Assembly (NCBI GenBank): GCA_964225175.1
Contig: CAXQNK010000105.1
Span: forward strand, 15,120 to 79,119
DNA from: Nitrosopumilus sp.
Lineage (GTDB): Bacteria > Pseudomonadota > Gammaproteobacteria > Xanthomonadales > SZUA-36
Direction: 5' to 3'
Length of the DNA: 64,000 nt
Shown: positions 33,212 to 50,597 of the stretch, piece by piece
Layout of the letters: each line of letters opens with the position of its first letter
Position numbering within the stretch: the stretch's first letter is position 1
Program-made: the position numbers and the translations under genes
Notes under the pieces: generated by a model
Database searches by the model: none
The model's input: the letters and a program-made list of their open reading frames with translations, nothing else
What the model was told of the DNA's origin: nothing

Positions 33212-33240
33212 TTGACATGTACAATAGTTGTATAGATAAT
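33212..33240 (+). promoter_or_regulatory. near-consensus sigma-70 promoter (TTGACA-17-GATAAT) with TGTACA/TGTATA in the spacer
   Basis: TTGACA at 33212-17, a 17-nt spacer (TGTACAatagtTGTATA) and GATAAT at 33235-40. It points away from arfB, toward 33241 and onward. Confidence 0.55.
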
Positions 33241-33246
33241 AAGGCA

Positions 33247-33358
33247 CGTTGAGTTCATTTGTGTATATGTTTCTGTTCTAGACACATCCCCCGGGACTCT
33301 GCCTATCTCCCTCAGGCAGACCCATGCTTAACCCCGGCCCCCTGCCGGGGTTTTTTTT
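33247..33358 (+). ncRNA. candidate small RNA or terminated leader transcript (about 110 nt)
   Basis: Bounded by the promoter above and an intrinsic terminator. An internal hairpin CTGCCT-9 nt-AGGCAG lies at 33299-33319. No plausible ORF. No known family recognised. Confidence 0.35.
33331..33358 (+). terminator. rho-independent terminator (plus strand)
   Basis: CCCCGGC-cccct-GCCGGGG followed by eight T. No plus-strand gene ends nearby. Confidence 0.75.
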
Positions 33359-33374: not shown

Positions 33375-33398
33375 TGTACAAAAAGTTTACTTTGTACA
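33375..33398. promoter_or_regulatory. TGTACA-N12-TGTACA candidate LitR operator overlapping the litR promoter
   Basis: TGTACA at 33375-80 and 33393-98, each extended to TTGTACA. A third TGTACA lies at 33416-21. A candidate promoter TTTACT (33386-91)-17-TATGCT (33409-14) encloses the second site. Confidence 0.5.
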
Positions 33399-33459
33399 GT
33401 TTACCGTTTATGCTATGTACACATTATGAATCGAAAATATGTGAAACAACGTACATTTT

Positions 33460-34383
33460 ATGGCGACCAACCCTGACAGTGAGGCGGGTACTTTCTTCCC
33501 CATCAGGACAGTCTCGGACCTGACGGGCGTTAACCCGATTACACTGCGTGCCTGGGAGCGGCGGTACGGCCTGCTGAGGCCGATCCGAAAAGAAAGTGGG
33601 CACCGTCTCTACACGCAGGAACACATCGATCTTGTCAACCAGGTCGTGGGCCTGCTTGACCGGGGCATGCGCATCGGCCAGGTCAAGGCGCACCTTGACG
33701 CCCGGGATGAGGCCAACGCAAGTCAGGGCGAAGGTGACATTTGGCGCCGCTACCGAGACAAAATGGTGGCGGCAGTCATCTGTTTCGATGAGGGCAGCCT
33801 CGAAGAAACGTACGGTGAGGCCTTATCGCTCTATCCGGTTTCCACGGTCACAGAGCGATTGGTTACCCCCCTGCTGAAGGAACTGGGTCGGCGGTGGGTC
33901 GAAGGCGAGGGGAGTGTCGCCGAAGAGCACTTCTTCGCCTTTTATTTGCGTAACAAGCTGGGCGCGCGTTTCCATCACCGGTTCAGGACTACCCGTGGCA
34001 CACGCCTGCTGATGGCTTGCCTTCCGGGGGACCGGCATGAGACGGGCCTGCTGCTCTTTGCCCTGGCCGCCAACGATGCGGGATTTGATACCACCTTGTT
34101 GGGTGCGGACATGCCGCTGGAAGAGTTGCCGGCCGCCGTCAAAAAAACAGCGAGTCGGGCCGTGATTCTCTCAGGAACGCTGCAGCCGACCGCTGAAGTG
34201 CTCGAGCGAGAGCTGCCTGCCTTGGTGCGCAACCTGGCTGTGCCGCTATACATCGGCGGGCAGGCTTCCACCCGGGCTGCCGATGCAATTCGCCGGGCCG
34301 GCGCCGAGGTGTTGGGTATCGATATTCAACAGGGCATCAGCCGGTTGATCGATAAGACCGCTCCGCTCGGGGCCGTTGTCTAA
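33460..34383 (+). CDS. litR: MerR-family, adenosylcobalamin-binding light-responsive regulator (LitR/CarH type)
   Basis: N-terminal MerR HTH (FPIRTVSDLTGVNPITLRAWERRYGLLRP). The C-terminal B12-binding domain has W-x9-EH (RRWVEGEGSVAEEHF) and the D-x-H-x-x-G loop (PGDRHETG), then ...VILSG... and ...YIGGQ. Confidence 0.85.
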   Translation: MATNPDSEAGTFFPIRTVSDLTGVNPITLRAWERRYGLLRPIRKESGHRLYTQEHIDLVNQVVGLLDRGMRIGQVKAHLDARDEANASQGEGDIWRRYRDKMVAAVICFDEGSLEETYGEALSLYPVSTVTERLVTPLLKELGRRWVEGEGSVAEEHFFAFYLRNKLGARFHHRFRTTRGTRLLMACLPGDRHETGLLLFALAANDAGFDTTLLGADMPLEELPAAVKKTASRAVILSGTLQPTAEVLERELPALVRNLAVPLYIGGQASTRAADAIRRAGAEVLGIDIQQGISRLIDKTAPLGAVV

Positions 34384-34394
34384 GGACCTCCAAG

Positions 34395-35495
34395 ATGGCG
34401 CGAGTATTTCCCTCTGCAGATTCCCTGACTCCGCGCAACTCGGGCCCGATCGGCTGGGCCGAACTTGGCCTCGTGCCAGACTCGGTCATCAGGGCTGCCA
34501 TTCGCCGCCTCAACAGGCAGCGACTGGTGGAAATAAGCGCTGCAAACGTCGAGGCCAGTTCATCGCAACTCAACGCGTTTGTGGACCACATGCGCGCAGC
34601 GCCGGTCGCTCTCGTACCCGACTTGGCCAACGAACAACACTACGAAGTGCCGGCATCGTTTTTCGGTCATGTCATGGGCTTGCATCGAAAATACAGCTGT
34701 TGTTTCTGGCCTGACAAGGACAGTTCGCTTGATGGCGCTGAGTCAGCCGCCCTGGCCATCACCAGCGAACGGGCCGGTCTGGAGGATGGACAAAACATTC
34801 TCGAGCTTGGCTGTGGGTGGGGCTCGCTCACATTGTGGGTTGCAGAGCATTATCCGAACAGTCGAATTCTTGGGGTTTCCAATTCGAGCAGCCAGCGGGA
34901 GTACATCACGGAACAGGCACGCCAACGCGGGCTGAACAACGTTGAGATTATGACCTGCGATATGAACCAGTTCGATGCCGGGCGTCAATTCGACAGGGTT
35001 GTATCCATCGAAATGTTTGAACATATGAGGAACTACGAGGAGATGTTCAAACGAGTGGCCGGCTGGCTCAATGACCGCGGGCGTTTTTTTATGCACGTAT
35101 TCTGCCATCGAAGTACGGCCTATCCGTTCGAGGACAATGGTCCATCTGACTGGATGAGCCGTCACTTTTTCTCCGGCGGAATGATGCCCTCCGCTGACCT
35201 GCCGCTGAGATTCCAGCGTCATCTGAAGCTGGAACGCCAATGGCTTTGGAACGGCTGTCATTACGAGAAAACGGCAAATGCCTGGCTGCGAAACATGGAT
35301 CAGCACCGCGGTGACATCATGCCCATTCTGGAAAACACTTACGGTTCGTCAGACGCTGCCATGTGGTTTCAGCGCTGGCGTATTTTTTTCATGGCGTGCG
35401 CGGAGCTTTTTGGGCATGACGAGGGCCGCGAGTGGTTCGTGAGCCATTACCGGTTTAAGCCCCACACCGGCACTTCGGGGAGCGACAAGCGATGA
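34395..35495 (+). CDS. cyclopropane-fatty-acyl-phospholipid synthase-like SAM-dependent methyltransferase (paralogue 1)
   Basis: 366 aa. Contains HYEVPASFFGHVMG, the SAM motif ILELGCGWGSLTLWVA, and SIEMFEHM. Confidence 0.85.
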   Translation: MARVFPSADSLTPRNSGPIGWAELGLVPDSVIRAAIRRLNRQRLVEISAANVEASSSQLNAFVDHMRAAPVALVPDLANEQHYEVPASFFGHVMGLHRKYSCCFWPDKDSSLDGAESAALAITSERAGLEDGQNILELGCGWGSLTLWVAEHYPNSRILGVSNSSSQREYITEQARQRGLNNVEIMTCDMNQFDAGRQFDRVVSIEMFEHMRNYEEMFKRVAGWLNDRGRFFMHVFCHRSTAYPFEDNGPSDWMSRHFFSGGMMPSADLPLRFQRHLKLERQWLWNGCHYEKTANAWLRNMDQHRGDIMPILENTYGSSDAAMWFQRWRIFFMACAELFGHDEGREWFVSHYRFKPHTGTSGSDKR

Positions 35496-36055
35496 CTCGA
35501 GTATTAATCAATTTTATTTGTTTCCAGCTCGGCTGGTTTGCATGCGTCATCAGCGCGGCCGAGGGCGTTCCAGTTGTCGGGTTGGCCATGGCTGCCGCCG
35601 CCGTTGGTTTGCACCTGTTTCTTGCCCGCGACGCCCAGGCGGAGGGGTTGCTGGTTGTGTTTGCCGTGATCATAGGCCTGGGCTACGACAGTCTGCTGGT
35701 GGCTTCCGGCTGGATTCGTTACCCGAGCGGTATGGTCATTCCCGGCCTGGCACCCTACTGGATTCTTGCCATCTGGGCGCTTTTCGCAACCACGCTAAAC
35801 CTGTCCATGGCCTGGCTGCGCGATCGTTTGTGGCTTGCAGCGGCCTTGGGGGCCTTGTTTGGACCCCTGAGTTATCTCGGCGGCGGGCGTCTTGGAGGGC
35901 TGGAATTTCTGCAGTCCACGGCCGCATTGACAGCGCTCTCTGCGGGTTGGGCTGTACTGATGCCCCTGATGCTGATGCTTTCGGTGCGCTTTGACGGAAC
36001 TGCGAGAGTTGCGGAAATGGAATTGGTGTCTTCCGCCCAGAGGCAGGAGTCGTGA
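35492..36055 (+). CDS. DUF2878 family membrane protein
   Basis: 187 aa and polytopic. It overlaps both neighbours by 4 nt and has the usual genomic association with cfa/DUF1365 clusters. Confidence 0.6.
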   Translation: MTRVLINFICFQLGWFACVISAAEGVPVVGLAMAAAAVGLHLFLARDAQAEGLLVVFAVIIGLGYDSLLVASGWIRYPSGMVIPGLAPYWILAIWALFATTLNLSMAWLRDRLWLAAALGALFGPLSYLGGGRLGGLEFLQSTAALTALSAGWAVLMPLMLMLSVRFDGTARVAEMELVSSAQRQES

Positions 36056-36843
36056 TTGACTGGTCCTCAGCCTTGGGGGCAGGGGGAGCGCTTCTCCTGT
36101 TTGCCTTCCTGTTTTGGGGTGTGAGCCTGGTACGCAATGACGTCAGTATAGTGGACTCATTGTGGTCCCTCATGTTCCTGCTGTCTGCTGGCGCGTATGC
36201 GCTACTTATTGAGCAACCGGGCCCGCGAACAGGCTGGTTGATTATCCTGGTGGCGGTGTGGGCGTTTCGATTGTCGATCTACATTACGTGGCGTAATCAC
36301 GGCGAACCCGAAGATTATCGCTACCAGGCCATCAGGCGCCGAAACCAGCCTGGTTTCAGATTCAAAAGCCTGTACCTCGTCTTTGTGCTGCAGGCGGCAC
36401 TGGCCTGGTTGATCAGCCTGCCCCTGATGGCTGCCATCAGCGGTCAATCCACGCCCGGGTTGCTCGATTACATCGGTATCGCATTGTGGACGGTCGGCGT
36501 TCTTTTCGAGGCCATTGGCGACTGGCAACTGTCCCGTTTCCGGCGCAACCCGGACAACCGCGGCAAGGTGATGGACACGGGGTTGTGGCGATACACGCGG
36601 CATCCGAACTATTTTGGGAACTTTACCCTGTGGTGGGGGTTTTACTTCATCGCCTGCTCCGCAGGCGGAGTCTTGACCGTCCTCTCGCCCATCTTGATGT
36701 CCGTCCTGCTCCTGCGCGTGTCGGGTGTCGCGCTGCTTGAAAAGAGCATCGGCGAGCGGCGTCCGGCATACGCTGACTACATCAGGTCTACAAATGCGTT
36801 TTTTCCCGGGCCGCGCAAGCGCTATGAGGTATCGGGGTCATGA
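36052..36843 (+). CDS. DUF1295 (steroid 5-alpha-reductase/ICMT-like) membrane protein
   Basis: 263 aa with the motif GLWRYTRHPNYFGNFTLWWGFY. Confidence 0.7.
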   Translation: MIDWSSALGAGGALLLFAFLFWGVSLVRNDVSIVDSLWSLMFLLSAGAYALLIEQPGPRTGWLIILVAVWAFRLSIYITWRNHGEPEDYRYQAIRRRNQPGFRFKSLYLVFVLQAALAWLISLPLMAAISGQSTPGLLDYIGIALWTVGVLFEAIGDWQLSRFRRNPDNRGKVMDTGLWRYTRHPNYFGNFTLWWGFYFIACSAGGVLTVLSPILMSVLLLRVSGVALLEKSIGERRPAYADYIRSTNAFFPGPRKRYEVSGS

Positions 36844-37370
36844 ACGTTAGGGTCCATCGCTCGCTCATGGCACTGGTCGCCTGGTCGCTGGGCGCCATCG
36901 GCTGCAGTTCAGTGCAGCCGCTTGAGCCGGTCTCAAGCGTCGATCTCGAACGATTCATGGGTGACTGGTATGTCATTGCAAACATTCCCACGTTGTTGGA
37001 GAAAGGCGCGCACAACGCCATCGAGTCCTACCAGCTCAATGCCGACGGCTCAATCGCCACTACATTTACTTATCGGGCCGGTGGTTTTGATGGCCCTGAA
37101 AAAACGTACCATCCGCGTGGTTTCGTGAGCAGCGAATCCAATGCGGTTTGGGGCATGCGCTTTGTTTGGCCCATCAAGGCGGATTATCGTATTGTGTATC
37201 TCGATGCGGACTACAGCGTCACAATTATCGGTCGAAACAAAAGAGACTTTGTGTGGTTAATGGCCCGGACTCCAAGCATTCCTGATGCCGAATACCAGCG
37301 CTTGGTGGCCTTGATTGTAGATATGGGATACGACGGCCAAAAGCTTAACAAGGTGCCCCAGGAATGGTAA
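36840..37370 (+). CDS. blc: bacterial lipocalin (Blc-like outer-membrane lipoprotein)
   Basis: Lipobox LGAIGC followed by the lipocalin signature VDLERFMGDWYVIANIP. Confidence 0.8.
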   Translation: MNVRVHRSLMALVAWSLGAIGCSSVQPLEPVSSVDLERFMGDWYVIANIPTLLEKGAHNAIESYQLNADGSIATTFTYRAGGFDGPEKTYHPRGFVSSESNAVWGMRFVWPIKADYRIVYLDADYSVTIIGRNKRDFVWLMARTPSIPDAEYQRLVALIVDMGYDGQKLNKVPQEW

Positions 37371-38344
37371 AAGGCCAGCGGGCCGGCGTCTGGCGCCGCA
37401 GGTTCAACGCCATGCGGCTCTGGTTCGACGCGGGCATGGTTGAGTTCGACCCTGAAGCAAGTGAGGTCAAGCGCGTCGACTGGCTGAGGACACTTCCTTT
37501 CGTGCTGGTGCACGTGGCGTGTTTGCTGGTGTTCGTCGTGGGCTGGAGTCCGATAGCGGTTGCAGTCGCTGTGCTGCTGTACGCGGTGCGCATGTTTGCA
37601 ATCACCGGGTTTTATCACCGCTATTTCTCACACCGAAGCTTTAAGACCTCACGCTTCGCGCAATTCCTGTTTGCCGTGCTCGGTGCCGCCTCGGTCCAAC
37701 GCGGTCCCATCTGGTGGGCTGCGCACCATCGGCATCACCATGCTGAAAGTGAGCAGGCCGATGATCCGCACTCACCGGTGCAACATGGGTTCCTCTGGTC
37801 GCACACGGGTTGGTTTTTGTCCCGTTCCCATTTTGGAATCCGGCCCGAACGCGTGGCAGACCTCATGCGTTTCCCTGAACTGAAGCTCCTTGATCGCTTC
37901 GATATCCTCGTGCCGGTTCTGCTCGCCGTGGGCCTGTTGTGGTTGGGGAATTACCTCGAATCAGCGGCGCCGCACCTGGGAACCAGCGGCGGGCAGATGC
38001 TGATCTGGGGGTTTTTCGTATCTACCGTGGTGCTGTACCACGCCACCTTCACCATTAACTCGCTGGCGCATCGCTGGGGCAGACGGCGATATGCGACCTC
38101 CGATGAGAGTCGCAATAACTTCTGGCTCGCACTGCTGACCCTGGGCGAGGGATGGCACAACAACCATCATCATTATCCTGCGTCTGCCCGGCAGGGGTTC
38201 TACTGGTGGGAGATCGACCTGACGTGGTATGGGTTGCGCCTGCTGGCTTTGTTCGGAGTTGTCTGGGACCTGAAACCCGTCCCCAGTTCACGGCGTGACA
38301 GCGGCAAAATTGTCACCGCGGACGCAGAGCGTGCATCCGCATGA
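37364..38344 (+). CDS. membrane acyl-CoA/acyl-lipid (delta-9 type) fatty acid desaturase
   Basis: Three His boxes: HRYFSH, HHRHHH and HNNHHH. Confidence 0.85.
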   Translation: MVKGQRAGVWRRRFNAMRLWFDAGMVEFDPEASEVKRVDWLRTLPFVLVHVACLLVFVVGWSPIAVAVAVLLYAVRMFAITGFYHRYFSHRSFKTSRFAQFLFAVLGAASVQRGPIWWAAHHRHHHAESEQADDPHSPVQHGFLWSHTGWFLSRSHFGIRPERVADLMRFPELKLLDRFDILVPVLLAVGLLWLGNYLESAAPHLGTSGGQMLIWGFFVSTVVLYHATFTINSLAHRWGRRRYATSDESRNNFWLALLTLGEGWHNNHHHYPASARQGFYWWEIDLTWYGLRLLALFGVVWDLKPVPSSRRDSGKIVTADAERASA

Positions 38345-39636
38345 AAATTGCGGTGGTGGGCACAGGCATTGCGGGCAACACGGTCGCTCATCACCTGTCG
38401 AAAAAGCATGAGGTCACGGTCTTCGAGGCCGCGAGCCGAATCGGCGGACATACCAACACGGTTACTGTCGAGCACGCGGGCCGCGATTACGCAGTGGACA
38501 CCGGGTTTATCGTCTACAACGAAAGGACCTACCCACATTTCATTCGCCTGCTGGACAAGCTGGGGGTGGAATGGCAAGACAGCGACATGAGTTTCAGCGT
38601 GCAGGACGCGCGCTCTGGGCTGGAGTACAACGGGACCAGCCTGAACGCCTTGTTTGCCCAGAGAAGAAACCTGCTGCGTCCCAGTTTTCATCGAATGATT
38701 CGCGACATTCTACGTTTTAACAGGGAAGCTTCCACCCTGCTGGCGCCAGGGGCGGCGGAGCCGACCCTGCAGGAATTTCTGGATGAGCGCGCGTATTCAA
38801 GAGCCTTTGTTGATCACTACATCATCCCAATGGGGGCGGCGATCTGGTCAGCAAAGCCCGCAATCATGCGGCATATGCCCGCACGGTTTTTTGCTCGTTT
38901 TTTCCATAACCATGGCATGCTGAGTGTCAATGATCGGCCTGTCTGGCGTGTTATTAAAGGAGGGTCGAAGCAGTACGTCGACCGGTTGGTCCGTGACCAT
39001 CTGGACCGCATTCGAACTCGGGCGCCCGTGCAATCTGTTCAACGCATGCAAGAACACGTCACAGTTCGGGTGGCGGGCGCAGAGCCCGAGCACTTCGATC
39101 ATGTCTTTCTGGCTTGCCACAGTGACCAGGCGCTGGCAATGCTGGCGGACCCCAGCGAACAGGAGACATCGGTGCTGGGTGCAATGACTTACCAGAAAAA
39201 CGAGGCCGTGTTACACACCGATGCCAGCATCATGCCGCGTCGCAGAAGGGCCTGGGCCGCATGGAACTATCACCTGCTGGAGGATTCCCAGGAACGCGTG
39301 GCGGTCACATACAACATGAACATCCTCCAGGGGCTGGATGCGCCTGTGCAGTTCTGCGTAAGCCTCAATAACACCGCGGCGATCAATCCGGAGCGGATCA
39401 TTCAAAGCTTTGATTATGAACACCCGGTGTTCACAGCGCAGGCCGTCGCCGCACAGCAGCGTCATGCCGATATCAATGGCGAGCGAGTCAATGGCTTCAA
39501 GGGCCGCACCTGGTATTGCGGTGCTTATTGGCGTTATGGTTTCCATGAAGACGGGGTGGTGAGCGCCCTGACAGCGCTCGAGAATTTCAACCAGGGGCAG
39601 GCGGATGCAGAGCGCAATCTACGAAGGGCGAGTTAG
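38341..39636 (+). CDS. FAD-dependent amine-oxidase/phytoene-desaturase-like oxidoreductase (UfaD-like candidate)
   Basis: 431 aa with the dinucleotide fold MKIAVVGTGIAGNTVAHHL. It lies immediately upstream of DUF1365 and a CFA-synthase-like gene. Confidence 0.8.
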   Translation: MKIAVVGTGIAGNTVAHHLSKKHEVTVFEAASRIGGHTNTVTVEHAGRDYAVDTGFIVYNERTYPHFIRLLDKLGVEWQDSDMSFSVQDARSGLEYNGTSLNALFAQRRNLLRPSFHRMIRDILRFNREASTLLAPGAAEPTLQEFLDERAYSRAFVDHYIIPMGAAIWSAKPAIMRHMPARFFARFFHNHGMLSVNDRPVWRVIKGGSKQYVDRLVRDHLDRIRTRAPVQSVQRMQEHVTVRVAGAEPEHFDHVFLACHSDQALAMLADPSEQETSVLGAMTYQKNEAVLHTDASIMPRRRRAWAAWNYHLLEDSQERVAVTYNMNILQGLDAPVQFCVSLNNTAAINPERIIQSFDYEHPVFTAQAVAAQQRHADINGERVNGFKGRTWYCGAYWRYGFHEDGVVSALTALENFNQGQADAERNLRRAS

Positions 39637-40378
39637 ACACAGGCGCTCGGTACCCTCGAAGCACGCTTTCGAGTACCGCCTGTTCATGGTTTACCTGGAT
39701 CTCGACGAGCTGGACGAAGTGTTTCAAGGTCGCTGGCTGTGGTCTACCCGTCAATGCACGGTCGCTCGCTTCAAGCGTGAAAACCACCTGGGTGACCCGC
39801 GCCAGCCGCTGAAAGAGGCGGTGCGTGAGCTCGTCGAACAAAGAGAAGGGCAACGTCCCGCCGGCCCCATCCGTTTGCTGACCCACCTCAGCTACTTTGG
39901 ATACTGTTTCAACCCTGTGAGCTTCTATTACTGCTTTTCAAATGACGAGCGACTGGAGTGGATTGTCGCTGAGGTTAATAACACTCCATGGGGTGAGCGG
40001 CATTGTTACGTGATGGATGCGCGCCAGGACCAGCGCGAGGAAGGTCGCATGAGGCATCAGCCGGTCAAAGCCATGCACGTCTCACCGTTCATGCCGATGG
40101 ACGTCGCCTATGACTGGCGATTTTCAACACCCGGAACCTCCCTGAGTGTTCACATGGAAAACCACCAGCCTGGCGGCAAGATTTTTGATGTCACCCTGGC
40201 ATTGGATCGAACGCCTGTCACCGGGCGAACGCTGGCCCGCGTGTTGATGGTTTACCCACTGATGACTTTGCGGGTCATCTGGGGCATCCACTGGCAGGCA
40301 TTCAAGCTTTGGCTTAAACGCGTGCCGGTCTATGATCACCCAGCGAAAGCTGTGACCACGCGAGGAGAGAAACTGTGA
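39605..40378 (+). CDS. DUF1365 family protein (UfaO-like candidate)
   Basis: 257 aa with the typical N-terminus MQSAIYEGRVRHRRSVPSKHAFEYRLFMVYLDLDEL. It overlaps the upstream gene by 32 nt. Confidence 0.75.
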   Translation: MQSAIYEGRVRHRRSVPSKHAFEYRLFMVYLDLDELDEVFQGRWLWSTRQCTVARFKRENHLGDPRQPLKEAVRELVEQREGQRPAGPIRLLTHLSYFGYCFNPVSFYYCFSNDERLEWIVAEVNNTPWGERHCYVMDARQDQREEGRMRHQPVKAMHVSPFMPMDVAYDWRFSTPGTSLSVHMENHQPGGKIFDVTLALDRTPVTGRTLARVLMVYPLMTLRVIWGIHWQAFKLWLKRVPVYDHPAKAVTTRGEKL

Positions 40379-41625
40379 AATCCGTTAGCCTGGCTTCACA
40401 AGAGCATCTTTCAGTGACACCCAAACCCGGCATGCTGGAGTCCCTGGCATGTCGCCTGGTTCTCAGGCAACTTGTTCAGCTGGAACATGGTCGCCTCACC
40501 TTGGTGGACCGTGGCGAGGAGCTTCACTTTGGCCAGGCGGACGAACACGCTGAGCTCAAGGTTCAGCTTACGGTTAAAGATCCTTCGTTTTATGCGGACA
40601 TCGCCTTTGGCGGATCGATCGGCGCAGGAGAGGCTTACATGGCAGGGGCCTGGACCTGCGATGATCTGGTTAGCCTGGTGCGAATGTTGGTTAGAAACCG
40701 CTCCGTCCTCGATGGCATGGAGGGGGGCTCGGCGCGTCTGACCCGCCCACTTCAGAAATTGTTCCACTGGATCAACAGGAACACGCGAGAAGGTGCCCGG
40801 CGAAATATTTCTGCGCACTACGACCTGGGCAATGCGTTTTTTGCCCTTTGGCTGGACGAGTCGATGATGTATTCCTCGGCCATGTTTCCGGAGCCGCAAA
40901 CCAGCCTCGCCCAAGGGCAACTCCACCGGCTTGAAGCCGTGTGCAAGAAGCTCGACCTCAAACCTGATGATCACGTTCTCGAGATTGGAACCGGGTGGGG
41001 CGGGTTCGCGATCCACGCCGCTGCCCGATACGGTTGCCGGATCACAACGACGACCATTTCCCGGGAACAACATGATCTGGCCCGCCAACGCATCAGGGCG
41101 GCAGGGCTCGAGGACCGCATCACCCTGCTGCTGGAGGACTACCGGGATCTCGAGGGTCAATTCGATAAACTGGTCTCCCTCGAGATGATCGAGGCCATTG
41201 GGGCGGATCAGTTCGACACCTATTTTGCTCGCTGCGGCGAGTTGTTGAAGCCTGGCGGTCGCATGCTCATCCAGGCCATTACCATCGCCGATGAACTGTT
41301 TGACGACTATCGCCGCAATGTTGATTTCATTCAGCGATATATTTTCCCCGGAAGTTGTTTGCCCGCACTGTCGGCCATGCTGGATTCGATCAAGCGACGT
41401 TCAAGATTGTTGGTGACCGGTGTCGAGGATATCGGGATTGATTACGCCAGGACCCTGAACATGTGGAGGTCAAATTTCTTCGCTGCCATCGAAGAAGTTC
41501 GCGACCAGGGGTTTTCTGAGGAATTCATTCGCATGTGGGACTTCTATCTCTGTTACTGCGAGGGGGGCTTCCTCGAACGATCCATCAGTGACGTCCACCT
41601 GGTCGCTGAAAAACCGACCTTCTGA
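40375..41625 (+). CDS. cyclopropane-fatty-acyl-phospholipid synthase family methyltransferase (paralogue 2; UfaM-like candidate)
   Basis: 416 aa. Contains HYDLGNAFFALWLDESMMYSSA, the SAM motif VLEIGTGWGGFA, and SLEMIEAIG. Confidence 0.9.
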   Translation: MKSVSLASQEHLSVTPKPGMLESLACRLVLRQLVQLEHGRLTLVDRGEELHFGQADEHAELKVQLTVKDPSFYADIAFGGSIGAGEAYMAGAWTCDDLVSLVRMLVRNRSVLDGMEGGSARLTRPLQKLFHWINRNTREGARRNISAHYDLGNAFFALWLDESMMYSSAMFPEPQTSLAQGQLHRLEAVCKKLDLKPDDHVLEIGTGWGGFAIHAAARYGCRITTTTISREQHDLARQRIRAAGLEDRITLLLEDYRDLEGQFDKLVSLEMIEAIGADQFDTYFARCGELLKPGGRMLIQAITIADELFDDYRRNVDFIQRYIFPGSCLPALSAMLDSIKRRSRLLVTGVEDIGIDYARTLNMWRSNFFAAIEEVRDQGFSEEFIRMWDFYLCYCEGGFLERSISDVHLVAEKPTF

Positions 41626-41628
41626 ACC

Positions 41629-41781
41629 ATGCGCCGGGAAAGTCATCGCAGGGTGCTGCCCTCGAAGGACTGCCCAGTGTGTGGTCTGTCCTTTAATTGG
41701 CGGCGCAAATGGGCGGCCCACTGGGAGTCCGTCCGCTATTGTTCAGAGCGCTGTCGCAGGAATCGCAGGGTTTCGAAATGA
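41629..41781 (+). CDS. DUF2256 zinc-ribbon protein (50 aa; below the ORF-track cutoff)
   Basis: Hand translation gives [50 protein letters not shown]. The C-x2-C ... WRRKW ... YCS-x2-C pattern is typical of DUF2256. Its TGA overlaps the ATG of the next gene (ATGA). Confidence 0.7.
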
Positions 41782-43325
41782 ATGCACAAGCGTGTCGCTG
41801 CATGCGCTTGGTGCTGGGTGACCAATTGAACCGGGAGCACTCCTGGTTCAGCCATGTGCACAATGACGTGGTTTACGTATTCGCGGAACTGCGCCAGGAG
41901 ACCGATTACGTCCGCCATCATGCACAGAAAGTGGTCGCTTTTTTTGCAGCCATGAAGGCGTTTTCCGATGAGCTTGAATCGGCAGGACACCGCACGCTGT
42001 ATCTCGATCTGGATCACACGCAGGACGATGTCGATCTGCCGGCACTCCTGCAGCGCCTCTTCACCGAGTGGGGTGTCTCCCGCTTTGAGTACCTGCTTCC
42101 CGACGAGTATCGACTTCGGCGTCAATTGGCCGAATTTTCAGAAAAACTGGATATGGACACAGCCGCCCTTGACACTGAGCACTTCCTGCTTCCGTTCGAT
42201 GTTCTCGGTGAGTGGTTCGATGCGGGTAAAAAGACCCGCATGGAGCATTTTTATCGCCGGATGCGCAGACACCTGGACATCCTGATTGATGATCAGGGTC
42301 AACCGGTTGGTGAGCGTTGGAATTTTGATACTGAAAACCGCAAGAAGCTCCCGTCATCACAGTCGATCCCGCCTGTGCTGCGGCTGAACAACCCAACAGA
42401 GCCGATCAGGGCCCGAATTGAGCGGCATGGCATTCAGACCATTGGCAATTTCCAGGATGATCTGCAATGGCCGGTGAATGCCAGCCAGGCGCGTAGGGTG
42501 ATGAACCACTTTATCGAGCACTGCCTCCCCGATTTTGGTCGTTTTCAGGACGCGCTTTCCACGCGAGACCCCTGGCTGTTTCACAGCCGCTTGTCCTTTG
42601 CCCTGAACGCCAAGATTCTCTCTCCGCGTGAGCTCGTGGACAGCGTCATGGCGGCTTGGCAAAGGGACAGGCAACGTTATCCGCTGGCTTCGATCGAGGG
42701 GTTTATTCGCCAGGTCATCGGCTGGCGAGAATTCATGCGTGGTATCTACTGGACCTACATGCCGGGGTACGCCACCCGAAATCACTTGGGGAGCAAGCGC
42801 AAGCTGCCGCGATTCTTCTGGGATGGAAAAACCGATATGGCCTGCATGGCACATGCCATCGGACAATCCCTTGATCATGCCTACGCGCACCACATCCAAC
42901 GTCTCATGGTCACGGGCAATTTCGCCTTGCTTGCGGGGATCGACCCCGACGAGGTGGATGCCTGGTACCTGGGCATTTATATCGATGCGGTGGAGTGGGT
43001 TGAAATGCCTAATACCAGGGGCATGAGCCAGTTCGCCGATGGTGGCGTCATTGCGAGCAAGCCCTATTGCTCCTCGGGGAACTACATCAACAAGATGAGC
43101 GACTATTGCGCACAGTGCAGTTACCGGGTGAAAGATAAAACGGGTCAACAGGCCTGTCCCTTCAACAGCCTATATTGGCACTTCATGATCCGGCACCGGG
43201 ACGAGCTCTCTCGTAACCCGCGTATCGGTATGATCTACCGAAGCTGGGACCGAATGAACGAGGAACACCGGGACGGCGTTCTGAAGACAGCGGAGGCAAT
43301 ACTGGACCAACTCGACGATCTCTGA
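41778..43325 (+). CDS. cryptochrome/photolyase family protein, FeS-BCP / (6-4) photolyase-like (COG3046)
   Basis: Trimmed to [18 protein letters not shown]. It shows family-wide similarity ([23 protein letters not shown]; [10 protein letters not shown]) and a C-terminal Cys cluster ([40 protein letters not shown]) consistent with a [4Fe-4S] site. Confidence 0.85.
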
Positions 43326-47332: not shown

Positions 47333-47863
47333 TTGAACAGTGGAAAGTTTAAATCCGGCGATCTTTTTCCCACCCTGGATGTCCGATCATCCGCCGACGA
47401 GCCCGTGGCCATCGCACGACCCGCGGACGGACGGTCTTGGTTGCTCTTGCTGGTTTACCGGGGTCGACACTGTCCACTGTGCACGCAATATCTCGAAACC
47501 CTAACGACCTTTACCGCCCGCCTTGCTGCAGCAGGAATTGAAGTGATCGCGCTTTCCGCAGACAGTCCGAATCAATTGACGGCTCACCTGGAGAATCTGA
47601 ATCTGGATTTTCCGGTGCATTGCGGCCTGACCGAATCGCAAATGGCCATGCTGGGTTTATATCGCTCGGAGCCACGATCCGCGGAAGAGACAGACCATGT
47701 GTTTCCTGAGCCTGGCCTGTTCGTGGTGAATGCCAATGGGCAGACGCAGATCGTTGATATTGCCAACAACCCGTTTACGCGTCCGGACCTTGAAATGCTG
47801 GTTTCCGGATTGGAGTGGCTACGCGAGGGCGGTGACCGATACCCAATTCGGGGAACGTATTAA
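47333..47863 (+). CDS. AhpC/TSA-type peroxiredoxin-like redoxin
   Basis: 176 aa with a TTG start. Contains LLLVYRGRHCPLCTQYL (thioredoxin-fold C-x2-C). Confidence 0.65.
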   Translation: MNSGKFKSGDLFPTLDVRSSADEPVAIARPADGRSWLLLLVYRGRHCPLCTQYLETLTTFTARLAAAGIEVIALSADSPNQLTAHLENLNLDFPVHCGLTESQMAMLGLYRSEPRSAEETDHVFPEPGLFVVNANGQTQIVDIANNPFTRPDLEMLVSGLEWLREGGDRYPIRGTY

Positions 47864-48597
47864 TAGGGGATCGTATTTCCATCCCAGTTCACAAAGCGCC
47901 CGCTCGATTCCGGCACACCATTGAGCACCACGTTTACGATTCGCTCTGCGCTCTTCTCAGCCGTGTAGAGTTTCTCCGGTTTGACATTCCCCTGGAATGG
48001 CCGTGAAAGCTCAGTGTCGGTCGTGCCGGGATGGATGGCCGTCACGCACAACCGGGGGTGTGTTCGGCGTGCCTCGATTGCCAGTGTTTTCAGGAACTGG
48101 TTAAGTGCCGCTTTCGATGACCGGTAACCGTACCAGCCGCCTATTCGGTTGTCCTCGATACTGCCGACCATGGCGGAGAGCACCGCAAAGTGACCCGGTT
48201 CACGCTTTGGGAATAGTGGAAGCAAGGCCTGCGCAACCAGCAAGGGACCGATGCTGTTGACGGCGAACAGGCGAGCAAGGGCATCTTGATGGCACTGCGC
48301 GAGAGACTTTTCAGGCTTAAGATCAGCTTCATGGAGTATGCCCGCGCAGTGGATCACCAAATCCACGGGTGGATTGATCCGGGAAGCGAACGCCCTCACG
48401 GACTCGGGTTGCGTGACATCAAGGCTGAGGCAGGACAGACGCGGATCATCGATCTCTTTCAGGGCCACGGCGGTCTGCGGGTCGCGCGCCGTGGCGCATA
48501 TGGCGCTTAAACCCTCCATGTCCAGGAGTTTTTTGGTGATGGCGAGCCCGATTCCCCGGTTTGCCCCCACGATGATGGCTGAGCTCGGCGTTTTCAT
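47860..48597 (-). CDS. short-chain dehydrogenase/reductase (SDR)
   Basis: 245 aa with cofactor motif IVGANRGIGLA and catalytic motif YRSSKAAL. Confidence 0.85.
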   Translation of the reverse strand: MKTPSSAIIVGANRGIGLAITKKLLDMEGLSAICATARDPQTAVALKEIDDPRLSCLSLDVTQPESVRAFASRINPPVDLVIHCAGILHEADLKPEKSLAQCHQDALARLFAVNSIGPLLVAQALLPLFPKREPGHFAVLSAMVGSIEDNRIGGWYGYRSSKAALNQFLKTLAIEARRTHPRLCVTAIHPGTTDTELSRPFQGNVKPEKLYTAEKSAERIVNVVLNGVPESSGRFVNWDGNTIPY

Positions 48598-49121
48598 TCC
48601 GAAAGTCGCCGAGGGGCGTGGATAAACTCCACGAGTCCGATGGACAAGCTGAACGGCCCTGCAGTGGCATCCGCGAGCAAAAAACCCACCTGGCTGATCT
48701 GGCTCGCATCGATAGGACCTGCCTCGGGCGTTTCGCGACCACGAAAAACGGGTTTGAATTCATCCAGCAAGAGTTCTGTTTCCTGCCAGTCGCGACTGGC
48801 AGGGAGCATTGCCTGCCAGGCGATCCCATTGGGTGAATTCTCCGGGCGGATCCTGAACTGGTAAAACCGCCCGTCCCCCTTGATCCGAATGCGGACCGCA
48901 TTGGTGTCGGCGGGAAGAGGCCCGATTGAGCATCTCGCAGAGGCGAAGCCCCCGTTGTTTTCCAGCGACAGCTCACCCCGGAACAGGAGGTGGTCCTGTT
49001 CCGTATCCAGTTGGCTTGCGGAAACGCCACCCATCACATCGTCGTTGACGACACTCCACTGGTTCTTAGACAAGTCGATCGACACTGAGCTCACGCGCGG
49101 ACCCCCGGACGCCCAGTGCAC
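48594..49121 (-). CDS. CIA30 (complex I intermediate-associated protein 30-like) family protein
   Basis: 175 aa with the motif WSVVNDDVMGGVSAS...GELSLENNGGFAS. It overlaps the SDR gene by 4 nt. Confidence 0.75.
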   Translation of the reverse strand: MHWASGGPRVSSVSIDLSKNQWSVVNDDVMGGVSASQLDTEQDHLLFRGELSLENNGGFASARCSIGPLPADTNAVRIRIKGDGRFYQFRIRPENSPNGIAWQAMLPASRDWQETELLLDEFKPVFRGRETPEAGPIDASQISQVGFLLADATAGPFSLSIGLVEFIHAPRRLSE

Positions 49122-49160
49122 GCGACCTCCACATGGCTCGGCAGTTTTCCTGATGCCGTT

Positions 49161-50597
49161 TCAGTCATGTCGCGATTTATTTGTTTGCAGCGCCGCAAGG
49201 GCACGGTCCCGGCCCACTTTGTGGTCTATGATTCTTTCCGGATATTCTCTGCCCAGCGTGACGCCCGCCTTGCTCAGCGTGCTCCCTGGCGCCTCCCAGG
49301 GTTGGTGAATGTAACGATTGGGCAGTGCCGAGAGTTCAGGGATATAGCGCCGAACATATTGGCCCTCGGGGTCGAATTTATCGCCCTGGAGCATGGGGTT
49401 GAAAATCCGGAAATAAGGCGCCGCATCCGCACCACAACCCGCCGTCCACTGCCACCCCATGGTGTTGCTTGCGAGATCAGCATCGACCAGCGTGTCCCAG
49501 AACCAGCGCGCGCCTTCTTGCCAGGGCTGGAGCAAGTGCTTGACAAGAAATGAGGCGGTAATCATCCGCACCCGGTTGTGCATCCAGCCGGTTTGCCATA
49601 ATTCTCGCATGCCCGCATCGACGATCGGATAGCCTGTCATGCCGGTTTGCCAGGCGTGGAGCTGTTGGGCATCCGGCACCCAGGGAAAATTTTTGTAGGC
49701 GCTGTTGAGAGCGTCCGCGGGCGTGTGTGGAAAGTGATAAAGCAGGTGATACCCGAATTCTCGCCAGGCAACCTCGCTGAGAAAGGTAAACCCGCCCGGT
49801 GAGGAGTCGAGTTCCGCCCGGACGGTCGCGTCCCAGACCTGTCTTGGGCCCAATTGACCGAAATGAAGGTAGGGTGACAACCTTGAAGTGCCATTCACGC
49901 CTGGCAGATTTCGCTCCGCCTTGTATCGTTCCGCATGTTCATTAACAAAAGACTCGAGCGCTTTGATCCCGCCCGCGATGCTGGGGTCCCAAGCCGCTTG
50001 CAGGCCGGCATCCCAATGAATTTTAGGCAGCAAATCGAGCGCGGCGAGATCCAGGCTTCCCAAATCAAGCGTCGCAGGGCTGAGTGTGCGGGTATCGACG
50101 TGGGTCGGGCCGCGCTGAGGCAGGCTGCGCAGGTGTTTCCAGAAAGGCGTAAAGACCCGGAAAGGTTGACCCGATTTATTGCTGATTTCATGGGGTTCAT
50201 AAAGTAACGCAGAATTGAAGGTCTCTACCGTCAGCCCTTCCTCACGGAGCCGTTTTTTCAGCCTGGTGTCGCGCGCGATGATGTCCGGTTCATAACGGCG
50301 GTTCCAGTACACCGTCGAAATAGGGAATTGGTCCGTGATAGTGGACAATACGTTTTCAGCGCCACCCCGCAGAAGCACCAGTTTCAGCCCGAGCCCCGAT
50401 AATTCTTCGGTCAAGCTGGTCAGGGCATGGTGCAGCCACCACCTTGACGCGCCCCCAGGCGCCCAGTCAGCCTCGTCTTCCGGCGAGTGGATGTACAACG
50501 GGATCACGGGTTGGCCGGCGACGGCGGCGGCTTGAAGTGCTGGGTTGTCTTTAACGCGGAGGTCCTGGCGGAACCACACGATCACGTGATCTTTCAT
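49161..50597 (-). CDS. phrB: class I CPD deoxyribodipyrimidine photolyase
   Basis: 478 aa. Starts VIVWFRQDLRVKDNPAL. Also has WREFGYHLLYHFP and TGYPIVDAGMRELWQTGWMHNRVRMITASFLVKHL. Confidence 0.92.
   Translation of the reverse strand: MKDHVIVWFRQDLRVKDNPALQAAAVAGQPVIPLYIHSPEDEADWAPGGASRWWLHHALTSLTEELSGLGLKLVLLRGGAENVLSTITDQFPISTVYWNRRYEPDIIARDTRLKKRLREEGLTVETFNSALLYEPHEISNKSGQPFRVFTPFWKHLRSLPQRGPTHVDTRTLSPATLDLGSLDLAALDLLPKIHWDAGLQAAWDPSIAGGIKALESFVNEHAERYKAERNLPGVNGTSRLSPYLHFGQLGPRQVWDATVRAELDSSPGGFTFLSEVAWREFGYHLLYHFPHTPADALNSAYKNFPWVPDAQQLHAWQTGMTGYPIVDAGMRELWQTGWMHNRVRMITASFLVKHLLQPWQEGARWFWDTLVDADLASNTMGWQWTAGCGADAAPYFRIFNPMLQGDKFDPEGQYVRRYIPELSALPNRYIHQPWEAPGSTLSKAGVTLGREYPERIIDHKVGRDRALAALQTNKSRHD

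Follow-up and report, generated by a model that had tools for sequence, protein, structure and literature searches.

Do three overlapping genes at positions 38341-41625 of a contig from a marine or estuarine gammaproteobacterium encode the synthesis of methylated furan fatty acids, and is this synthesis switched by light? Furan fatty acids are potent scavengers of singlet oxygen and radicals, and to our knowledge their biosynthesis has been proven in two alphaproteobacteria only. The question arose from a first-pass annotation of a 64,000-nt stretch of assembly GCA_964225175.1 (contig CAXQNK010000105.1, 15,120-79,119 of the forward strand; hereafter the window, to whose positions all coordinates refer). 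It described an amine-oxidase-like flavoprotein, a DUF1365 protein and a methylase resembling cyclopropane fatty acid (CFA) synthase, and predicted that together they make furan fatty acids. Our comparative analysis indicates that the trio is probably a ufaD-ufaO-ufaM module for methylated furan fatty acids, and the core of an 11-gene operon whose predicted repressor is a light-responsive regulator of the CarH type bound to adenosyl-B12 (AdoB12).

Organization of the operon

In the open reading frame (ORF) listing, the trio occupies 38341-39636 (431 aa), 39605-40378 (257 aa) and 40375-41625 (416 aa), all on the + strand, with overlaps of 32 nt between the first two ORFs and 4 nt between the last two. 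Pfam assigns them to Amino_oxidase (78.9 bits) with NAD_binding_8, DUF1365 (293 bits) and CMAS (278 bits), respectively, so that both the coordinates and the families of the first-pass annotation match exactly. The other elements named there (a second CMAS-type methylase, an FA_desaturase, a MerR and B12-binding regulator and a DPRP protein) are all present as well. Between 33460 and 43325, 11 successive + strand genes overlap or (nearly) abut throughout, in the order CarH/LitR-type regulator, MT366, DUF2878, DUF1295, lipocalin, desaturase, trio, DUF2256 and DPRP:

33375-33421, + strand: candidate CarH/LitR operator, a consensus match over the operon promoter
33460-34383, + strand: CarH/LitR class I-type regulator (Pfam MerR_1, B12-binding_2 and B12-binding)
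34395-35495, + strand: MT366, an S-adenosylmethionine (SAM) methyltransferase like coclaurine N-methyltransferase (CNMT); CMAS-type, 145 bits (Pfam)
35492-36055, + strand: DUF2878 membrane protein (Pfam 141.8 bits), kept in the operon of relatives
36052-36843, + strand: DUF1295 membrane protein of the steroid-reductase/ICMT-like superfamily (Pfam 231 bits; weak Steroid_dh, ICMT and PEMT matches)
36840-37370, + strand: Blc-type lipocalin lipoprotein (Lipocalin_2, 132.8 bits; signal peptide with lipobox-like AIGC)
37364-38344, + strand: membrane fatty acid desaturase of the Delta9 (DesC/SCD) type (Pfam FA_desaturase)
38341-39636, + strand: UfaD-like FAD-dependent fatty acyl desaturase (Amino_oxidase, NAD_binding_8, Cereibacter sphaeroides homology)
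39605-40378, + strand: UfaO-like DUF1365 protein, predicted to carry out the O2-dependent furan ring-forming step (DUF1365, C. sphaeroides homology)
40375-41625, + strand: MT416, a methylase of fatty acyl chains that uses SAM and belongs to the UfaM clade (CMAS, tree, active-site signature)
41629-41781, + strand: DUF2256 zinc-ribbon mini-gene of 50 codons (Pfam 69 bits), with a 4-nt overlap with the next start
41778-43325, + strand: DPRP photolyase-cryptochrome (FeS-BCP/CryB/PhrB-type; Pfam DPRP 242 bits), last gene of the operon; its ORF opens at 41697, the likely true start being 41778

The region 33460-43325 is one operon and no chance juxtaposition, because starts and stops overlap or abut and near-identical metatranscriptome contigs bridge four of the junctions. 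Contigs at least 99% identical to the operon were found in four environmental RNA libraries, and they cross the carH-MT366, DUF1295-lipocalin, ufaD-ufaO and ufaO-methylase junctions. These contigs fit a single polycistronic transcript made in nature, DNA carry-over in the libraries being possible. The operon sequence was also found in more than 20 metagenomes from estuary, seawater and sediment, obtained in several studies.

The UfaD- and UfaO-like proteins

UfaD (RSP1091) is an NAD/FAD-binding, phytoene-desaturase-like protein that turns 11Me-12t-18:1 into the conjugated diene 11Me-10t,12t-18:2, and UfaO (RSP1090) is a DUF1365 protein that closes the furan ring using O2, giving the furan fatty acid 9M5-FuFA (Lemke et al. 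2020, PMC7380195). The mapping of UfaD to the FAD/amine-oxidase-like protein and of UfaO to DUF1365, as made in the first-pass annotation, is correct according to that study. We obtained the C. sphaeroides 2.4.1 proteins by going from R. sphaeroides ChrR in a PDB alignment to the rpoE-chrR locus of Cereibacter johrii, and from there to the 90% clusters holding ABA80277.1 and ABA80276.1.

The 431-aa flavoprotein is 41% identical to UfaD of C. sphaeroides 2.4.1 (ABA80277.1, RSP1091) over 418 of its 431 aa (E 2e-102). Its N-terminus, KIAVVGTGIAGN, is an NAD/FAD Rossmann motif, and the protein matches NAD_binding_8, Amino_oxidase and DAO. The 257-aa protein is 31% identical to UfaO (ABA80276.1, RSP1090) in an alignment of 242 aa (E 5e-30) that keeps the two N-termini in register, and DUF1365 (PF07103) spans its whole length (profile positions 1-234 of 235, 293 bits). 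The ufaO-like gene lies directly downstream of the ufaD-like gene, overlapping it by 32 nt.

In the C. johrii locus, ufaD and ufaO stand divergently upstream of rpoE-chrR and are followed by genes for an MFS transporter, a DUF3833 protein and an SDR. RSP1089 is not a CFA-like paralogue: its Cereibacter ortholog is the MFS transporter, RSP1088 is DUF3833 and RSP1087 is the SDR. Plasmid pPZ02 of Paracoccus zhejiangensis (locus L172) carries a sigma/anti-sigma pair, fasciclin, ufaD, ufaO, a ufaM-like gene, MFS, SDR and TspO. It is the R. sphaeroides RSP1091-1087 operon with a methylase retained, which, next to the C. johrii locus (L090), suggests that ufaM was relocated in Cereibacter.

The methylase MT416 and its active-site signature

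UfaM is a SAM methylase (RSP2144) that converts phospholipid cis-vaccenate to 11Me-12t-18:1 (PMC7380195). In the gammaproteobacterium Halomonas sp. YLGW01, ufaM expressed alone in Escherichia coli yields 11-methyloctadec-12-enoate, while its cfa raises cyclopropane acids (PMC12089945). We compared MT416 with characterised references, namely E. coli Cfa, BfaB and TmpB (supplement of PMC7791843) and Halomonas UfaM and Cfa (supplement of PMC12089945).

Among these references, Halomonas UfaM has the highest identity to MT416 (49%), E. coli Cfa reaching 37% and TmpB and BfaB 32-36%. In the maximum-likelihood tree MT416 falls in a clade of 21 rows (support 100/98) and, within it, in a subclade of 11 rows (100/98), both of which hold Halomonas UfaM. 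Besides Halomonas UfaM, nearly all members of the larger clade stem from loci in which ufaD and ufaO are present too, and Cfa, BfaB and TmpB all fall outside it. The orthology analysis proposed in the first-pass annotation as a check of the furan prediction is hence favourable on both counts: the UfaD- and UfaO-like proteins align with those of C. sphaeroides, and MT416 clusters with a tested UfaM, apart from the cyclopropane and 10-methylene synthases.

The active site points in the same direction. At the positions equivalent to C139, E239, H240, H266 and Y317 of E. coli Cfa, all the characterised cyclopropane and 10-methylene synthases examined have C-E-H-H-Y, while MT416 and Halomonas UfaM both have S-E-A-Q-Y. 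The pattern [S/A/C]-E-A-Q-Y was found in 168 of the 170 cluster-linked methylases of the related loci that we fetched. In E. coli Cfa, C139 and H266 serve as ligands for bicarbonate. That the clade of MT416 has lost both (C139S, H266Q) would fit a different fate of the carbocation intermediate.

Two other identities for the methylase were considered. MT416 scores under every NCBIfam Cfa equivalog cut-off (272 bits against 400 for PRK11705, 274 against 600 and 234 against 650) and has Ser and Gln in place of C139 and H266, which speaks against a Cfa of the E. coli type. The tuberculostearic (10-methyl) system of BfaAB and TmpBA was rejected because of flavoprotein family, tree position and active-site residues.

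MT416-like methylases also occur without UfaD and UfaO, in 12 loci from Binataceae, deltaproteobacterial and Acidiferrales metagenome-assembled genomes (MAGs; L062, L066, L069, L071, L074, L077, L079, L080, L082, L084, L085 and L089). A Delta9-type desaturase stands directly beside the methylase in about half of them, and many of these methylases have Cys at the 139 equivalent and Gln at 266. The end products in these loci may be olefinic acids with a methyl branch.

The regulator and its candidate operator

The regulator aligns along its length with Thermus thermophilus CarH (5C8D/3WHP; E 1e-27). Two motifs are conserved with respect to these structure entries, W-x9-E-H (here WVEGEGSVAEEH) and the His loop E/D-x-H-x-x-G (here D-R-H-E-T-G). 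In Pfam it carries the MerR helix-turn-helix (HTH) and both B12-binding domains, which agrees with the definition of class I by an HTH, a four-helix bundle and a Rossmann B12 domain. From these features, the regulator is to be placed as a divergent class I member of the CarH/LitR family, and not as an equivalog of the seed proteins of the NCBIfam CarH model.

Upstream of the regulator, TGTACA-N12-TGTACA is found at 33375-33398, 62 bp before the ATG, with a third TGTACA at 33416. Using the operator consensus of Pseudomonas LitR proteins (PMC9758184), T(G/A)TACA-N12-TGTA(C/T)A, this is the sole match in the window, with 0.05 expected by chance. Clusters of TGTAYA half-sites occur at two places only in the window, the regulator promoter and a second promoter at 33212-33240. 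In relatives, TGTAYA repeats stand upstream of carH at other spacings, often 11 bp, which is the spacing of classic CarH operators.

According to the first-pass annotation, the B12 photoreceptor would couple unchanged chemistry to another sensory signal. The regulator does carry the AdoB12 motifs of CarH, but the arrangement is not new in principle, as LitR-family light control of ufaM clusters has been published for Pseudomonas (PMC9758184). Our literature search found no description of a B12-type CarH ahead of this cluster, an arrangement that departs only modestly from what is known.

The second methylase, the desaturase and the accessory genes

Among solved structures, MT366 comes closest to coclaurine N-methyltransferase from a plant (6GKV), with 250 bits and an identity of 36.5% across 334 aa, whereas CFA synthases score about 103 bits; the identity of MT366 to Halomonas UfaM is 26%. 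FufM (RPA0924), which adds a second methyl group, is likewise reported to be 26% identical to UfaM (PMC7380195), and its reported identity to AT4G33110 of Arabidopsis, a gene whose annotation reads putative coclaurine N-methyltransferase, is 38% (PMC10940516, PMC3388832). Through this chain of CNMT likenesses and reported FufM identities, MT366 is a plausible candidate for a second methylase of the FufM type. No Rhodopseudomonas entry stood among the matches listed when a MT366-like protein from alphaproteobacteria served as query in a homology search.

MT366-like genes travel with DUF1295, and usually with DUF2878, in gammaproteobacteria, alphaproteobacteria and other phyla; the pairing with DUF1295 recurs in the alphaproteobacterial loci L171 and L191. 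This association suggests that the three genes form a functional sub-module.

Delta9 acyl-lipid and acyl-CoA desaturases typically have the His boxes HRxxSH, HRxHH and GEGWHNNHH. Those of the desaturase in the operon (HRYFSH, HRHHH and GEGWHNNHHH) are of this type, as its first-pass identification as a delta-9 desaturase implied. Loci without UfaD and UfaO, from MAGs of Binataceae and deltaproteobacteria, also pair the desaturase with an MT416-like methylase, and this pairing fits a role in supplying substrate.

Conservation and distribution

We fetched 89 related loci with the window's own proteins (the gammaproteobacterial set) and 80 with a Paracoccus homologue (the alpha/betaproteobacterial set). 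The trio was found in identical order in 69 of the former and 63 of the latter, that is, in 132 loci. Dozens of MAGs, from Lysobacterales, Woeseiaceae, Chromatiales and other groups, share the full architecture, with the desaturase and the DPRP gene variably present (in several relatives the DPRP gene follows the methylase), and the closest relative locus has 68-75% protein identity.

CarH adjoins the trio in 27 of the 69 gammaproteobacterial trio loci. Among the 63 of the alpha/betaproteobacterial set, the neighbour is a ChrR-type anti-sigma factor in 16 and a distant MerR/LitR-like protein in nine. Judging from this distribution, one chemistry module is plugged into different photo-oxidative-stress sensors according to lineage.

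In the betaproteobacterial loci L197, L206, L209, L213, L214, L228, L231 and L232, the MerR/LitR-like gene stands divergently beside ufaD-ufaO-ufaM, and its products are 25-32% identical to the CarH of the window. This arrangement may be of the class III LitR type reported for Burkholderia.

The proposed pathway and its alternatives

The chemical steps, lipid products, B12 binding and light induction that we propose are inferred from characterised homologues. The module would act on existing phospholipid acyl chains. MT416, using SAM, would convert cis-vaccenate, or the Delta9 product of the co-encoded desaturase, to the methyl-branched trans-olefin 11Me-12t-18:1; the 431-aa flavoprotein would then add a second, conjugated double bond, and the DUF1365 protein would insert one O atom from O2 and so close the furan ring, to which MT366 may add a second methyl group as FufM does. 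In the dark, an AdoB12-bound CarH/LitR tetramer on the TGTACA sites of the promoter would repress the operon. Light would photolyse the cofactor and release the repression, and the membrane antioxidant and the photolyase would therefore be made together. The presence of two photolyases and a peroxiredoxin nearby is counted in favour of this reading.

Several points weigh against a light-controlled furan module. The lipid products are deduced by homology, for the host and its close relatives alike; the identity to UfaO is only 31%, and DUF1365 proteins have hardly been characterised as enzymes. Our comparisons include a single UfaM of tested function, which comes from one heterologous-expression paper (Halomonas, PMC12089945), and its sequence was rebuilt by frameshift-tolerant alignment from a supplement damaged by optical character recognition, with nine ambiguous residues; R. 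sphaeroides UfaM (RSP2144, Q3J4I7), R. palustris RPA2569-2571 and FufM (Q6NBA4) were left out of the comparisons. The regulator reaches 135.6 bits against the 400-bit cut-off of the NCBIfam CarH equivalog, and the exact N12 operator is absent from 3.76 Mb of related loci. In addition, MT366, DUF2878, DUF1295, the lipocalin and the desaturase are without counterpart in the R. sphaeroides pathway, and the end product may therefore differ.

It is unlikely that the module stops short of the furan or makes some other modified acyl chain (mid-chain methyl-branched, methylene, conjugated-diene or cyclopropane/cyclopropene), with the flavoprotein as a reductase or desaturase and DUF1365 in another role. 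The precedent would be the flavoprotein and CMAS methylase pairs bfaAB and tmpBA, which make 10-methyl and 10-methylene acids in actinomycetes and some proteobacteria (PMC7791843). BfaA (an FAD oxidase) and TmpA (geranylgeranyl-reductase-like), however, belong to other flavoprotein families (PMC7791843), whereas the flavoprotein of the trio is 41% identical to UfaD, and MT416 lies outside the BfaB, TmpB and Cfa clades without their C139/H266 pair. The Cereibacter proteins themselves still bear the database name 'cyclopropane/cyclopropene fatty acid synthesis protein', the pairs of a desaturase and an MT416-like methylase without UfaD and UfaO indicate that the methylase product can be an end point, and the Halomonas study detected the methylated intermediate only (PMC12089945). 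Against this, no family other than DUF1365 has been shown both to be needed and to suffice for closing the ring, and its gene is here translationally coupled between the other two. We consider it very improbable that furan fatty acids are made under a regulator that is insensitive to darkness, takes another cue (B12 availability, redox) or regulates only itself. The low equivalog score and the lack of the exact N12 site in relatives would agree with such a regulator, and B12-independent LitR/CarH classes do exist, Pseudomonas sensing light through a partner LOV protein (PMC9758184). Yet W-x9-EH and the His loop that provides the lower ligand are both conserved, the candidate operator overlaps the promoter, the same transcript ends with a photolyase gene, and the association of CarH with the trio recurs among related loci.

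A furan module under light control is the reading that we prefer, and it could be carried further. In this broader form, which we hold to be possible though rather doubtful, the operon would be an extended light-switched pathway of lipid remodelling, beyond a plain copy of the three-enzyme Rhodobacter route. The Delta9-type desaturase would provide the olefin on which the pathway acts, the furan would be the work of UfaM, UfaD and UfaO, and MT366 with its constant DUF2878 and DUF1295 membrane partners would tailor it further, to a dimethyl or other form. The Blc lipocalin would handle the product or move it towards the outer membrane, and the AdoB12 photoreceptor would control the whole pathway, apparently together with a C-rich small RNA encoded just upstream. 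If so, furan lipid biology would gain new players in the genes for DUF2878, DUF1295 and the lipocalin.

Neighbouring elements

An orphan transcription unit lies at 33212-33358 (+ strand), between arfB and carH. Its promoter is near-consensus (TTGACA-TGTACA-ATAGT-TGTATA-GATAAT), its spacer being taken up by two TGTAYA half-sites at a distance of 11 bp, and a strong intrinsic terminator follows about 110 nt downstream. The RNA folds with -34.5 kcal/mol (z -3.06) and has a C-rich loop, AUCUCCCUC, and a CAUCCCCC stretch, both of which resemble anti-Shine-Dalgarno small RNAs (sRNAs). Rfam gave sub-threshold matches only in this region (anti-hemB, Hrs1 and toxic sRNA). The 3' half and terminator are kept in locus L010, and several relatives have a terminator of similar form, CCCCGG...CCGGGG-U, ahead of carH. 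The unit probably encodes a CarH-controlled small RNA.

A second light-damage module (47333-50597) is found 4 kb downstream of the operon:

47333-47863, + strand: AhpC/TSA peroxiredoxin
47860-48597, - strand: SDR, equal in length to R. sphaeroides RSP1087
48594-49121, - strand: CIA30-family protein
49161-50597, - strand: CPD photolyase

The window scan found no TGTAYA cluster ahead of this module. In relatives the SDR comes directly after the DPRP gene; here a DUF885 and a beta-CASP RNase gene stand in between.

Significance of the locus

As a new instance of the known furan fatty acid pathway, the locus is well supported, though rather ordinary. Its variant features are the B12 photoreceptor, the FufM-like methylase within the operon together with DUF2878 and DUF1295, the desaturase and the lipocalin. 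Along with about 60 syntenic loci from uncultured marine and estuarine gammaproteobacteria, it suggests that the pathway is common in sunlit waters. The stress sensor to which the pathway is wired varies by lineage: it is CarH in the present locus, whereas alphaproteobacteria use sigmaE/ChrR, and Pseudomonas and betaproteobacteria use other classes of LitR.

Annotation pipelines lump UfaM-type methylases with cyclopropane synthases, and in public annotation both types are called 'cyclopropane-fatty-acyl-phospholipid synthase family protein'. Cfa positions 139, 240 and 266 offer a practical rule for separating them: S/A/C, A and Q in the UfaM type, and C, H and H in cyclopropane synthases. Four conserved accessory genes are flagged as candidates for a part in furan lipid chemistry.

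Comparison with known systems

One of the closest known systems is that of Rhodopseudomonas palustris CGA009, where ufaD (RPA2571), ufaO (RPA2570) and ufaM (RPA2569) are consecutive and are necessary and sufficient (PMC7380195). The families and their order are those of the window, a likeness drawn from the published description and not from sequence. In R. palustris the dimethyl furan acid is made by the second methylase FufM, and fufM (RPA0924) is unlinked, whereas in the window a CNMT-like methylase is encoded inside the same operon. The operon of the window further adds DUF2878, DUF1295, the lipocalin, the Delta9-type desaturase, DUF2256 and the photolyase, with CarH at its head.

In C. 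(Rhodobacter) sphaeroides 2.4.1 (RSP1091-1087), ufaD and ufaO are adjacent and overlapping as in the window, and the function is in photo-oxidative stress. Its ufaM (RSP2144) lies elsewhere, however, the operon continuing with the MFS transporter, DUF3833 and SDR genes, and control is by the singlet-oxygen-responsive sigmaE/ChrR pair and not by a photoreceptor. Halomonas sp. YLGW01 (Choi et al. 2025, PMC12089945), a gammaproteobacterium like the host of the window, has its three ufaD, ufaO and ufaM genes consecutive. Its UfaM belongs to the subclade of MT416 with the same S-E-A-Q-Y residues, and has a known product, the methylase alone having been tested there.

With regard to control, the LitR proteins of Pseudomonas putida and P. 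mendocina (PplR/PmlR) govern a light-induced cluster of phrB, an SDR, an FAD oxidoreductase, a hypothetical protein and ufaM (PMC9758184). As in the window, the repressor is of the MerR/LitR family and the sites are TGTACA-N12-TGTACA, binding in the window being predicted. In these class II LitRs the B12 domain is not complete, and the light signal reaches them by way of a short LOV protein, whereas the regulator of the window has complete AdoB12 motifs (class I), and there is no LOV gene among the annotated genes of the window (26.3-51.2 kb).

The cyclopropane and 10-methylene synthases share with MT416 the CMAS fold and the SAM motifs, and they act on phospholipid-bound cis-olefins. Nevertheless, they are 32-37% identical to MT416, form separate clades and keep Cys139 and His266, which in the UfaM clade are replaced by Ser or Ala and by Gln, respectively.

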